IMG/VR virus record: IMGVR_UViG_2740892431_000022
DNA length: 35,244 nt
Reading direction: 5' to 3' (one strand)
Origin: a virus
Taxonomy: Duplodnaviria > Heunggongvirae > Uroviricota > Caudoviricetes
In this document: piece after piece, positions 3,788-12,328 of the stretch
How the letters are laid out: every line of letters starts with the position of its first letter
Position numbering within the stretch: the stretch's first letter is position 1
The notes under the pieces: generated by a model
Told to the model about the DNA's origin: nothing
Databases searched by the model: none
The model's input: the letters and a program-made list of their open reading frames with translations, nothing else
Translations under genes and position numbers: made by a program

Positions 3788-3999
3788 TGTTCTGTATCTC
3801 CGGTATTTTTCTGCCGTTTCCATGCCCGGACAGCGTCGGACAGCTCTTTCAGGCTGTATGCTGCTTTAAGCTTTTCCCATAACCACTGTGTTGTTATGTG
3901 CATCAGCAGGGCAGCCAGGGCTGCCCCCGCACTGAGGCATGTCGCCAGGCCAGTAAGAATCAGTGTCCATGCGGTGATTTCCCTGAGTATGTCAGCCAT
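3784..3999 (-). CDS. Small membrane protein (71 aa)
   Basis: GGGAGG ribosome-binding site 5 nt before the ATG at 3999; one predicted TM helix (WTLILTGLATCLSAGAALAALLM). Confidence 0.55.
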   Translation of the reverse strand: MADILREITAWTLILTGLATCLSAGAALAALLMHITTQWLWEKLKAAYSLKELSDAVRAWKRQKNTGDTEQ

Positions 4000-9946: not shown

Positions 9947-10135
9947 TTATGCCGCATTTGACGTGGGTTTTAATCCCAGTTTTACGGCAATTTCATGGGC
10001 TTTGCCGTAACGAGCTTTGGTCTGTCCATTGAGAACACGATAGACCTCATTGCGGCTGTAGCCGTGTTCTTCGGCCCAGCGGGTAAACGTGATACCACGC
10101 TGACGGAAGAGATTTTTAACTTGTTCGGAAGTCAT
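9947..10135 (-). CDS. ner: Ner-like DNA-binding protein (Ner/Nlp family)
   Basis: 62 aa; ...FTRWAEEHGYSRNEVYRVL...GKAHEIAVKLGLKP parallels the Mu Ner HTH and C-terminal segment; AAAGGAGA ribosome-binding site; first gene of the leftward operon. Confidence 0.75.
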   Translation of the reverse strand: MTSEQVKNLFRQRGITFTRWAEEHGYSRNEVYRVLNGQTKARYGKAHEIAVKLGLKPTSNAA

Positions 10136-10182
10136 TGTTGTCTCCTTTGTTGATGCAATGATGTTTGTTTTATATGTGATAG

Positions 10183-10211
10183 ATTATGAGAACTATTGTT
10201 CTCATTGTCAA
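10183..10211 (-). promoter_or_regulatory. Early promoter Pe (minus strand): -35 TTGACA, 17-bp spacer, -10 CATAAT
   Basis: Reverse complement of 10206-10211 is TTGACA and of 10183-10188 is CATAAT; about 45 nt upstream of the ner-like ATG. Confidence 0.6.
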
Positions 10212-10214
10212 TGA
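10186..10214. promoter_or_regulatory. Operator-like palindromes overlapping Pe
   Basis: ATGAGAAC-tatt-GTTCTCAT (10186-10205, 8-bp arms) fills the Pe spacer; TCATTG-t-CAATGA (10202-10214) overlaps the -35. Confidence 0.55.
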
Positions 10215-10221
10215 GGTTTGT

Positions 10222-10647
10222 GTGAATTTTGATTCTCTTTGCGCGTCGCGGTTCAAAGCTGAGCGTTCGCGGTTATCACTCAAGCAGGCTGAAGTAGCAG
10301 CCCTTTGTGGCGTTTCAAGAGAAATGTGGGGGAAATATGAACGAGGGGTTGCTGTTCCCGGAGGTGAGTTACTTGCAGCCTTTGCAAGAATTGGGGCCAA
10401 TGTACAGTTCATTCTTACCGGGGAGTCATCAGGTATAACTTTATCACGTGATGAAATGGAGTTACTGCAGCACTACCGGCAGGCACCATTACAGGTCAAA
10501 GGTTCAGTTTTGTCGGCCTTGACTACTGGCTCCTCCAGAGAACGGGCGGAACAGGTTATTCATGGAGATGTTCTGGGGAATGTTATCAAAGGTAACGTAA
10601 CCATAGGAACAGGTGGAATAATGAACAAAAATACCAAGAGAAGATGA
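10222..10647 (+). CDS. XRE-family HTH repressor-like protein
   Basis: HTH ...LSLKQAEVAALCGVSREMWGKYERG...; divergent from the ner-A-B operon; GTG at 10222 has GAGG 5 nt upstream; the ORF-track ATG at 10186 lies inside the operator palindrome (a leaderless start there is not excluded). Confidence 0.7.
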   Translation: MNFDSLCASRFKAERSRLSLKQAEVAALCGVSREMWGKYERGVAVPGGELLAAFARIGANVQFILTGESSGITLSRDEMELLQHYRQAPLQVKGSVLSALTTGSSRERAEQVIHGDVLGNVIKGNVTIGTGGIMNKNTKRR

Positions 10648-11630
10648 GTAAAGAGAAGCAAACAGTTAACGGGGATGTGGGTAACGTTGTCAGCGGTGAT
10701 GTTACCATTCATAACTATTCTGCTGACATACTTCCTTCGGCCCAGCAACCAATTTCGTTGCTGCAAAAACGCGATTTACACAGATTGATGGATGAATTGG
10801 TTGATCTGGGGGAAAGTAAGCGCGAGCTATGGATGACGATCCACACGAAACTTAATACCAAAACAGTTAATGAAATGACTGCGGCTGATTATCATGGTGC
10901 GGTTGAGATCCTTCAGAGATATGCACAACAGATCCAGAATATGAAGGACTGTAATCTTCTGGTCAGCAAAATAATGGCGCTTACTGACCCTGGGTATCGT
11001 CTTGACCGTGACAGATACTGTCTGAAGCATTTCGGTACAACCCATCTTAAAGGCCTAGACAAAGAGCAGTTGCAGGCTGTGTTTGGTTATTTTGATGATC
11101 TGCTGAATATTCGTGATGAGAGTAAAACTCTATCACCTCCATCGGAAAGCGGTGCAAAATCAGTCGCAACTGTACCAACCAGAAGCTGGAAGCCTCATGT
11201 AGTAGTGTTGGGGGGAGTGTTAGTTCTTGTAGCAATATTTTTCGTGGGAATGATTGTGTTCGCTGGTAAATGGGGAAATGCCAAAGCAGTAGCTTCTACT
11301 GAAACCAGCGTTTTTAACATTAAAACCAACGATAAAATAATAGAAGATTCCATCCCCGCACTGCGCAGCATGTTTCCAGGGTTAAATAAGTACTCAGATG
11401 ATTTCCATTCGGTTTCAAGCTACAAGCAAAAAACGGGCTGGCATACCCTTAAATTTACTGTATCAGCAAAGGCATCCGTCCCCGAAAATTATAGTGTTAA
11501 GGGCAAGGTTTGTTACATTAACATAAGCCCTGATGGTAGTTATGCTCGGGTTTTGACTGCTCCATGTCGTTCACTGCTACTTGATCAGCAAAGCACTCCT
11601 GACAGTAAATACCGTTTTATTCTTAAATAG
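10644..11630 (+). CDS. Single-pass membrane protein (328 aa), unknown function
   Basis: ATG overlaps the repressor stop (ATGA); roughly 180-aa N-terminal domain, one TM (HVVVLGGVLVLVAIFFVGMIVFAG), roughly 120-aa C-terminal domain with two Cys; sampled GC about 33-47 percent. Confidence 0.75.
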   Translation: MSKEKQTVNGDVGNVVSGDVTIHNYSADILPSAQQPISLLQKRDLHRLMDELVDLGESKRELWMTIHTKLNTKTVNEMTAADYHGAVEILQRYAQQIQNMKDCNLLVSKIMALTDPGYRLDRDRYCLKHFGTTHLKGLDKEQLQAVFGYFDDLLNIRDESKTLSPPSESGAKSVATVPTRSWKPHVVVLGGVLVLVAIFFVGMIVFAGKWGNAKAVASTETSVFNIKTNDKIIEDSIPALRSMFPGLNKYSDDFHSVSSYKQKTGWHTLKFTVSAKASVPENYSVKGKVCYINISPDGSYARVLTAPCRSLLLDQQSTPDSKYRFILK

Positions 11631-11720
11631 AAAATAACAGCTGAATTACCATGGGATCAGAAAAAAGACAAAGGCGGCATCATGCTGCGTTCTGAAATTT
11701 TAATGTAAAAGGTGATGAAC

Positions 11721-12302
11721 ATGGCAGGGATTCAGGTTATCGCAGGAAGTTTTCCTAAAGGGTGGGCAAGCATGGGGTTCGGTACCATCGTGTTTGCCAA
11801 AAAACCAAAACAAGGCTTTCCTGAAAATATTGTATTAAATCTGAAAGAAGAGCTTTTATCGATTGAACTTGCGGATAGTGAAGAGGAAAACCGTATAGGT
11901 AAGGCGGCAGGCGCAGGTTTGCTTGGTGGATTAATCTTTGGTGGTGCAGGGTTGGTCATTGGAGGTTTGCTTGGTGCGGCGGACAAGACGAAAAAAACTA
12001 TCACTTTTAAGGCAATGTTTACGGGAAATAGGTTACTTCTGGCTAAAACAGATTCAAAAACTTTTGTAAAACTTCAGTCAATTGCTGCTGATAATGCCCA
12101 TAACGCATCTGTAATCAACATGAAGCAAACTAATAGGGGCGATGTTTCTTCTCGTAAACAACTAACAGAAAATCCACAGCAGCAAGACTTACCTGCGCCC
12201 GCTACAACAGTAAAAATGACTGCCAAAGATAAGTTAGAATCGGCTCTTGGGCTGGGAATCATCGTTATAGCTGTTTGGGCAATAATACACTTCTTTTTTT
12301 AG
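11721..12302 (+). CDS. Glycine-zipper membrane protein (about 193 aa), unknown function
   Basis: AAGGTGA ribosome-binding site before the ATG at 11721 (ORF opens at 11712); AAGAGLLGGLIFGGAGLVIGGLLGAA segment plus C-terminal hydrophobic helix LGLGIIVIAVWAIIHFFF. Confidence 0.7.
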   Translation: MAGIQVIAGSFPKGWASMGFGTIVFAKKPKQGFPENIVLNLKEELLSIELADSEEENRIGKAAGAGLLGGLIFGGAGLVIGGLLGAADKTKKTITFKAMFTGNRLLLAKTDSKTFVKLQSIAADNAHNASVINMKQTNRGDVSSRKQLTENPQQQDLPAPATTVKMTAKDKLESALGLGIIVIAVWAIIHFFF

Positions 12303-12304
12303 TG

Positions 12305-12328
12305 CAGCCCTTCAGGGCTGTTTCTGTT
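12305..12328 (+). terminator. Putative rho-independent terminator after the cargo operon
   Basis: Stem CAGCCC/GGGCTG (12305-12310 with 12315-12320), loop TTCA, then TTTCTGTT. Confidence 0.5.

Follow-up and report, generated by a model that had tools for sequence, protein, structure and literature searches.

The question raised by this locus is why a prophage repressor should end, and the membrane protein encoded directly downstream of it should begin, with much the same short peptide. The locus lies in a stretch of DNA of 35,244 nucleotides (IMG/VR virus record IMGVR_UViG_2740892431_000022; hereafter the window, at its full length), which is a BcepMu-like transposable prophage of Escherichia coli. 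Two of its genes are at issue: one encodes an XRE/Cro-C1-type helix-turn-helix (HTH) protein, hereafter the repressor, and the other a 328-residue protein with a single transmembrane (TM) helix, hereafter the partner. From a comparison of about 200 related loci, which yielded roughly 140 cognate pairs and in which at least 16 variants of the motif occur (for example NRVAGRDY, FNGxxxGQFxxxxIIN and HRxALGDY), we hypothesize with moderate confidence that each peptide is one half of a device for cognate pairing, which would link the repressor to the membrane by docking.

In the window the repressor ends in ...RAEQVIHGDVLGNVIKGNVTIGTGGIMNKNTKRR, and its tail carries the motif as ...QVIHGDVLGNVIKGNVTI... 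(core GDVLGNVIKGNVTI at 10564-10605); the partner starts with MSKEKQTVNGDVGNVVSGDVTIHNY, and this start carries ...KQTVNGDVGNVVSGDVTI... in turn. BLASTP of the whole repressor against the whole partner aligns repressor residues 120-140 with partner residues 3-22 (11 of 21 positions identical and 17 of 21 positive, with one gap; E 3e-4), and the Smith-Waterman score of 55 was reached by 2 of 2000 shuffles of the repressor. The first-pass annotation, made from the window's sequence, had claimed a shared motif at these two termini over differing DNA, and both points hold: nucleotide identity over the aligned codons is 60%, and different codons are used at 7 of the 11 identical residues. It had also placed the peptides correctly, except that the partner segment VNGDV...HNY occupies residues 8-25 rather than 9-24. 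The stretch KQTVNGDVGNVVSGDVTI.NY is the best-conserved part of the partner, being near-invariant in 22 homologs down to 44% overall identity. Taken on its own, the match within the window pair is suggestive; the comparison with other loci carries the main weight.

A motif profile based on residues 1-28 of 52 partner-family proteins was run against 6,816 open reading frames (ORFs; 727,416 residues, both strands) from the window and all fetched loci. It matches 257 ORFs: in 156 the match falls in the first 45 residues, in 101 in the last 25, and in none elsewhere, a distribution at odds with the common low-complexity pattern that the first-pass annotation had allowed for. Derived from partner N-termini alone, the profile also picks up the C-terminal tail in about half of the repressor homologs. 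Among partner-family N-termini the motif forms a continuum from FxGDVGxVAGxDVxN to GxxNRVAGRDYxE, and the aligned segments of cognate pairs measure 11-33 residues, typically 15-23. Many partners of the NRVAGRDY type have a second, degenerate copy 10-15 residues further on, such as NRAAGRDFSE...LIGRDIVNISL (P0147, P0152, P0168 and P0188; loci L005, L012 and L062); repressors usually have one copy, with two in the rare P0068 and P0124.

The two termini change together across loci. In a sample taken with the repressor as query (38 loci from species genomes and 80 from viral contigs), the directly downstream gene was read, and wherever the repressor has a tail of this kind, its variant nearly always recurs at the start of the downstream protein. 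Classes include NRVAGRDY (L005, L012, L014, L059), FNGxxxGQFxxxxIIN (L003), GQVxAxNIYNI (L025), HRxALGDY (L099), xxQIGxV (L108, L031) and AGRDI (L097, L112, L033). Tail and partner N-terminus read NRVAGRDFNENK and NRVAGRDFNENK in one pair, and FNGDISGQFAGNQIIN and FNGTAQGQFSSRDIIN, GQVSAENIYNI and GQVAANNIYNI, GHRFALGDYHEN and EHRIALGDYYEH, QHNTGSGVVQIGSVGGN and QHNGGERSIQIGNVTGN, and NGAQAAGRNIVN and NGGQAAGRDINN in others. Over 72 unique pairs the median Smith-Waterman score is 50.5 for cognate and 21 for non-cognate combinations. When 15 classes are each given one representative, the cognate scores sum to 715 against 393 +/- 37 under permutation, and none of 100,000 permutations reached 715; within the NRVAGRDY class, too, cognate similarity exceeds non-cognate similarity (p ~0.003-0.006, permutation). 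Locus L029 (~3820-3900) was left out of the class analysis: its high score reflects a short DNA-level tandem repeat in overlapping frames (VNGCKL..NGCKLTGASS), not the motif. For the reciprocal test, the starting set was partner-family proteins identified without use of the repressor; as the broad partner alignment was too divergent for a locus scan, two narrower alignments took its place. An XRE repressor lies directly upstream in 64 of the 74 unique loci so obtained, a matching tail is present in 63 of the 74, and one extra class came to light (QQFNGPVGSVTSGDVVN / QQFNGAVEQVAAGDIKNF).

Such likeness could in principle be a functionless relic, left by fission of an ancestral HTH-membrane protein or by repeated local duplication or gene conversion at the junction, or a chance resemblance of low-complexity peptides. 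Both copies do abut the same gene junction, and past gene conversion is compatible with the sequence; against this, chance is rejected by the permutation tests and by the confinement of profile matches to protein termini, and the motif is the most conserved part of both the partner and the repressor tail. Over 16 cognate pairs, nucleotide identity is 56% and different codons encode 94 of the 165 identical residues, which rules out a recent duplication or gene conversion; synonymous sites are saturated between the two copies, whose peptides are conserved. Judged by these codons, the similarity is held by selection at the level of the peptide and not of the DNA. A single old duplication predicts that cognate and non-cognate copies should be equally distant; the cognates are closer, so both copies evolve in concert. 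Nor are fused forms found: in a search of 1.84 billion representative proteins the partner-family domain starts at residue 3-60 in 112 of 112 representatives, none of which has an N-terminal HTH fusion, and none of 104 repressor homologs contains partner domains. Where tail and N-terminus match, intergenic spacing ranges from -23 to +35 nt and the reading frame varies too. The proposal of the first-pass annotation that the motif may be the trace of an ancient fusion or fission finds no support, given the missing fusions, the variable spacing and frame, and the excess similarity of cognates, and we regard a relic of any kind, or a chance likeness, as scarcely credible. Recoding was also rejected: a -1 frameshift would join the two frames in the window, but there is no canonical slippery heptamer, and spacing and frame vary among loci.

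As far as sequence comparison goes, the tail segregates with the type of partner and not with the DNA-binding domain. Six repressors whose HTH domains are only 35-50% identical to that of the window have tails 81-89% identical to its tail, and all six are on contigs shared with GDVGNV-type partners. Conversely, two repressors with HTH domains 72-79% identical have tails only 39-50% identical, and for one of these (P0029, locus L054) the partner start MTQSFHGDTGVVAGGDVFN matches its own tail QIFHGSVGQVIKGD. Repressor evolution appears modular, with the DNA-binding domain setting operator specificity and the tail setting partner specificity.

The module spans two unrelated groups of temperate phages. 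The first comprises Bcepmuvirus-like transposable prophages of Enterobacterales, Pseudomonas, Gilliamella, a Francisella-like metagenome-assembled genome, and Burkholderiales; the second comprises P2-like Peduoviridae, where the pair lies between an Arc-like/Cox-type switch and the integrase. In the P2-like Escherichia phage 520873 (L121, NC_049344.1, 2284-2896) the partner is frameshifted into unannotated ORFs of 55 and 115 residues, and the upstream repressor keeps a matching tail (NNRIAGRDYNETKGR versus NNRVAGRDFHEKN). Lonsdalea and Pseudomonas relatives belonging to the window's prophage type (L006-L010, L019-L022, L077, L080, L098, L100, L106) are built differently: their repressor has another, helical C-terminal domain (...IYNFLIKEP..VLKLVINH) and no tail motif, and their downstream membrane protein opens with an extra helix (DELVAKLS.RLTEEI.NLP) followed by the motif-like ITISVGGDNPGSIHVGSVVNINP / IKIKGDHGNINLGTQ, an arrangement that may be an alternative pairing mode.

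The HTH protein occupies the position of a prophage immunity repressor because it is divergent from the Ner-like/transposase early operon. Its HTH domain is recognised by Pfam (HTH_31, 4.7e-7, 30.5 bits for a cut-off of 27; HTH_3, 8.5e-5, 23.0 bits for a cut-off of 23) and, together with the divergent early operon and the operator-like repeat in between, identifies it as an XRE/Cro-C1 phage immunity repressor. An AlphaFold2 (AF2) model gives the HTH, two confidently predicted helices (residues 88-114), and a tail without structure (residues 115-153, pLDDT <55). Pfam finds no Peptidase_S24 domain in the repressor, whose C-terminus is this 39-residue, predicted disordered tail, and among its 104 homologs S24 (PF00717) occurs in three distant ones only (P0090, P0091 and P0100). 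The homologs end in the same tail or in a related G/N/V/I-rich one, usually closed by a K/R cluster (for example ...VSGxGNRVAGRDYNENKK, ...QIFNGDISGQFAGNQIINNG..KKNK and ...QTFHGEVGQVVQAEGDIRNK...); a terminal cluster of this kind follows the motif in most tail classes, and the partner side has none. Since most homologs begin with MNFDSL and positions 10186-10212 are operator/promoter DNA, the true start of the repressor is probably the GTG at 10222 (VNFDSL...) rather than the annotated ATG at 10186, which would make 10186-10221 operator/promoter DNA.

The ATG of the partner gene overlaps the repressor stop codon, so the two genes are translationally coupled. From its N-terminus onwards, the partner has the disordered motif (AF2, residues 1-29, pLDDT ~42), a cytoplasmic domain that is helical and Flk-like, a single TM helix, and at the C-terminus an alpha/beta domain that we take to be periplasmic. 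Distant similarity links the helical domain to the N-terminal region of the flagellar regulator Flk (PRK10715, E 3.5e-12, residues 19-147), and Flk also resembles the partner in its C-terminal membrane anchor. Flk differs in being chromosomal and unpaired with a repressor, and the recovered Flk start (MQPISNPGN...) lacks the motif; the Flk equivalog test failed (46.3 bits against a cut-off of 353), and Flk proteins appear at the weak end of the partner-family search. The topology of Flk agrees with partners that are tail-anchored and face the cytoplasm, with the N-terminus presumably cytoplasmic and the C-terminal TM anchor in the inner membrane. A fold search of the partner model against the Protein Data Bank (PDB) and BFVD gave nothing at E <= 0.001; below significance, a helical sub-domain faintly resembles the C-terminal domains of Red-beta, RecT and Erf. 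No match came from searching PDB by sequence. The alpha/beta domain also stands alone in proteins of 120-200 residues with an N-terminal hydrophobic segment (P0133, P0139, P0144, P0159-P0165 and others), and is a mobile, probably periplasmic module for which the fold searches turned up no informative relative.

Partners are diverse. Most have 190-215 residues and combine the helical domain described above with a TM helix placed in their final ~25 residues; the window type has the alpha/beta domain in addition, after the TM helix; others are 117-120-residue proteins with a Zn-ribbon and two TM segments, or plain two-TM proteins (117-170 residues for these and the Zn-ribbon type together). Outside the motif the Flk-like helical, Zn-ribbon and plain two-TM partners are non-homologous, nearly all have C-terminal TM segments, and only the N-terminal motif and a membrane anchor are common to all types. 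The window partner does not match phrog_245 ('anti-repressor Ant'); the P2-like variant of L062 does so weakly (4.6e-6 over ~100 residues), and has only sub-threshold Pfam matches, to GemA and ORF6C.

One rival explanation is a toxin-antitoxin (TA)-like or abortive system, in which the membrane protein would be a toxic or excluding effector that the disordered repressor tail neutralises, and that loss or titration of the repressor, on induction or superinfection, would set free. The layout is that of type II TA pairs with HTH antitoxins, where an HTH protein with a disordered C-terminal tail is encoded by an overlapping upstream gene; the Zn-ribbon and plain two-TM partners resemble holin-type or membrane-perturbing proteins; and phrog_6521 is filed under 'moron / host takeover, membrane protein'. 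However, the window partner matches none of the toxin or defence families of Pfam, NCBIfam and PADLOC, the HTH protein occupies the position of an immunity repressor, and the large Flk-like cytoplasmic and periplasmic domains look regulatory rather than lytic. Moreover, TA pairs have no motif shared by toxin and antitoxin, which leaves the homotypic similarity unexplained. We consider this explanation improbable.

Alternatively, a common third factor (a protease, adaptor, chaperone or other phage protein) might read both termini, which would then have no need to touch one another. Disordered terminal peptides are typical of degrons and adaptor tags, the unrelated repressor of phage Mu is under ClpXP control through its C-terminus, and a few repressors have a tail without a matching neighbour. 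Yet the motif classes co-vary pairwise in phages of the same hosts (E. coli, Salmonella, Serratia), whose proteases are conserved, and such a factor would have to act on partners with only motif and anchor in common; the pair has no further conserved companion gene, the operon's third one being restricted to close relatives. This possibility seems to us more improbable still, and, like the TA-like and relic explanations, it ranks below direct docking.

Direct binding, the explanation that we favour, accounts for the terminal position of the peptides, the adjacency and coupling of the genes, the concerted evolution of the two copies, their independence of the HTH domain, and the diversity of the partners. 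The docking or oligomerisation strand suggested by the first-pass annotation is thereby the favoured part of its account, on the strength of co-variation, peptide-level selection, segregation of tail with partner, and the shared anchor. We propose that the repressor tail and the partner N-terminus would make direct contact through homotypic pairing of beta strands; stacking in register would account for the retention of identical G, N, V/I and R/D positions by the two copies. On their common mRNA the end of the repressor would be translated just before the start of the partner, which should favour assembly at synthesis. The partner would tether or sequester the repressor at the inner membrane, in the role of an anti-repressor or sensor anchored there, with the motif class determining its specificity. 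The lysogeny switch of a repressor without S24 autocleavage could in this way respond to a cue from the membrane or envelope, and for partners of the window type the additional periplasmic domain may be the sensor. The favoured reading leaves two options on each of two counts, namely binding that is stoichiometric or self-propagating (amyloid-like), and control in either direction.

Several observations weigh against direct docking. Both AF2 monomer models show the motifs unstructured, and the polar, charged NRVAGRDY class bears less resemblance to a classical beta-aggregation segment. Specificity is not absolute, as in 5 of 15 classes some non-cognate N-terminus scores at least as high as the cognate one. 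There are motif-bearing repressors without a matching downstream gene (L015, L023, L026-L028, L073, L086) and partners without an upstream XRE gene (L149, L154, L155); because of these, the tail may have a function of its own, for example in self-association of the repressor. The biological output, be it induction, immunity, exclusion or toxicity, is entirely our inference. A variant in which the partner's helical domain offers a pocket for both motifs, with the N-terminal copy as a pseudo-ligand, is unlikely as a general rule because Zn-ribbon and plain two-TM partners without that domain bear a matching motif.

A specific and stronger form of direct contact is amyloid-like (prion-like) signalling: clustered partner N-termini would nucleate a cross-beta fold and template repressor tails into an aggregate, so that the repressor is irreversibly inactivated and lytic growth follows; in a mirror version, the repressor would trigger the membrane protein. 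The pair is laid out like the gene pairs of BASS/FASS and Bab/Agp (10.1101/2020.01.06.895854; 10.1101/2024.11.07.622273). What marks BASS/FASS pairs is one motif found both C-terminally in the product of gene 1 and N-terminally in that of an adjacent collinear gene 2, with short or overlapping spacing (10.1101/2020.01.06.895854). The composition of the motif also fits. It has ~15-22 residues, is rich in G/N/Q/V/I, and lies in disordered termini between charged or proline-rich flanks that could act as 'gatekeepers'; the 868 residues of the motif in 23 pairs consist predominantly of G, N, V, I, A and Q and include no Pro, Trp or Cys. Positions identical between pair members are mostly G (44) and N (32), then V, A, I, R, Q and D, as in-register stacking would have it. 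Two classes have a G-phi-Q-phi-G-like core (VVQIGSV / SIQIGNV and AIQIGSI / AVQMGNV), which by eye resembles the phi-Q-phi-G core of RHIM and BASS3, and many partners have a second degenerate repeat (NRxAGRDFxE ... xGRDxVNI) where the repressor has one.

Set against this, neither an NLR/STAND or other known oligomerising receptor nor a Bell/HeLo-type effector is present, and NB-ARC, NACHT, TPR and WD domains were not found in the partners. Ten motif peptides searched against Pfam at E up to 10 matched no family, including the amyloid-motif families RHIM, HET-s, PP and sigma; R, D and E abound in NRVAGRDYNE, the commonest class; and constitutive co-expression from one operon would need tight control against spontaneous nucleation. 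Compared with known amyloid pairs (BASS Bell with NLR; E. coli Bab/Agp, which is BASS11; fungal HET-S/NWD2), the present pair is alike in its terminal motif of ~15-25 G/N/Q/V/I-rich residues, in its adjacent, collinear and often overlapping genes (ATGA in the window, -23 to +35 nt in relatives), in having many classes of a motif (typically 15-23 aligned residues, where such pairs call for at least 15) with greater resemblance within than between pairs, and in having one membrane-directed member. It differs in that the protein with the C-terminal motif is a DNA-binding repressor and not a pore-forming effector (Bell/HeLo/Bab), that the protein with the N-terminal motif is small and membrane-anchored and not an NLR/STAND, TPR or PIN sensor, that the locus is a phage immunity region and not a defence island, and that Pfam matches its motif to none of RHIM, HET-s, PP and sigma. 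We regard amyloid-like signalling here as doubtful, and it is as a tentative analogy that prophage induction, or its prevention, might be called a prion-like switch in which a membrane sensor nucleates a cross-beta fold in the repressor tail.

Two other kinds of system offer partial parallels for docking. Anti-sigma operons of the RseA-RpoE type likewise encode a regulator followed by a translationally coupled single-pass membrane protein, whose cytoplasmic N-terminus would hold the regulator and whose periplasmic C-terminal domain could sense. They are non-homologous to the pair described here, their regulator is a sigma factor rather than a repressor, anti-sigma and sigma factor have no shared peptide motif, and most of our partners are tail-anchored without a periplasmic domain. 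Anti-repressors (P22 Ant, 186 Tum, the Gifsy antirepressors, VP882 Qtip) inactivate repressors, cleavable or non-cleavable, by contact or aggregation, which is the output proposed here, and the helical domain of a P2-like partner variant gives the weak phrog_245 match mentioned above. The known anti-repressors differ in being soluble, encoded away from the repressor, under separate (often LexA) control, and without a shared motif, whereas the partner is co-transcribed with the repressor and membrane-anchored.

Full-text literature searches found no description of a motif shared between a prophage repressor and an adjacent membrane protein, and no HTH, repressor or phage context comes up in a survey of amyloid signalling motifs by deep learning; as far as we found, a conserved two-gene cassette with a co-evolving terminal motif is previously undescribed. 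Its interest lies in prophage induction, which is not obvious from sequence in these phages because their repressors lack an S24 autocleavage domain: the cognate link between tail and partner would be a concrete route from the envelope to the lysogeny switch. Affected are Mu-like and P2-like prophages of extraintestinal pathogenic E. coli (ST131, CE10, IAI39), Salmonella, Serratia, Pectobacterium, Pseudomonas and others. If homotypic beta pairing is true, the principle of a shared terminal motif would extend from immune cell death to the control of phage transcription; if the prion-like switch is true, this would be the first amyloid-type pair with a transcription factor as output and the first outside NLR/effector immunity, with dozens of orthogonal classes setting an 'induction specificity' apart from operator specificity. 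The 16 or more co-evolved classes are also candidates for short orthogonal pairing tags.

Table 1. Features of the repressor-partner locus, in window coordinates.
Feature	Position	Strand	Basis or remark
Ner-like small HTH protein	9947..10135	-	phrog_925 1.3e-32; E. coli IAI39 annotation; first gene of divergent early (transposase) operon
Operator-like inverted repeat, core ATGAGAAC-N4-GTTCTCAT	10179..10212	.	divergent control region; sequence
Leftward promoter, near-consensus TTGACA-17-CATAAT	10211..10183	-	
XRE/Cro-C1-type HTH prophage repressor, 153 aa as annotated	10186..10647	+	Pfam, phrog_8, alignment, AF2
Motif copy 1, repressor C-terminal tail, RAEQVIHGDVLGNVIKGNVTI, residues 120-140	10543..10605	+	BLASTP, Smith-Waterman
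End of repressor tail, GTGGIMNKNTKRR, closing in a basic cluster	10606..10644	+	
Partner gene, 328 aa	10644..11630	+	phrog_10002; ATGA overlap with repressor stop
Motif copy 2, partner N-terminus, KEKQTVNGDVGNVVSGDVTI, residues 3-22	10650..10709	+	core 10671-10709
Helical cytoplasmic domain, residues 31-161, pLDDT >90	10734..11126	+	NCBIfam PRK10715; AF2
Single TM helix, ~residues 185-208	11196..11267	+	hydrophobicity scan; AF2 helix 187-205
C-terminal alpha/beta domain, residues 221-328, pLDDT >90	11304..11627	+	AF2
Third operon gene, 196 aa, glycine-rich with C-terminal TM	11712..12302	+	phrog_12025
Terminator-like stem-loop, end of repressor operon	12304..12321	+	
Small P-loop protein, 158 aa	12340-12816	-	RefSeq 'ABC transporter ATPase'; convergent to repressor operon

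The prophage region of the window is at least 99% identical across about 97 complete E. coli genomes, including IAI39, O7:K1 CE10 and ST131, and only one isolated phage, classed as Bcepmuvirus, has DNA in common with it. The minus strand of the control region (Table 1) encodes the Ner-like protein, an IclR-like regulator, a DUF3102 protein and the transposase; divergent from these, on the plus strand, is the three-gene operon of repressor, partner and 196-residue protein. The inverted repeat overlaps both the strong, sigma-70-like leftward promoter and the annotated repressor ATG, and a second operator may be represented by a 25-nt direct repeat (copies at 10156 and 10209, 76% identical). Only the closest, near-identical prophages contain the third operon gene, a restriction that rules it out as a member of the module; its product has a glycine-zipper-like stretch, GAGLLGGLIFGGAGLVIGGLLGAA. 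The small P-loop protein gives weak matches to defence ATPases, all of them sub-threshold, and its gene sits between the repressor operon and the holin/transglycosylase lysis genes.

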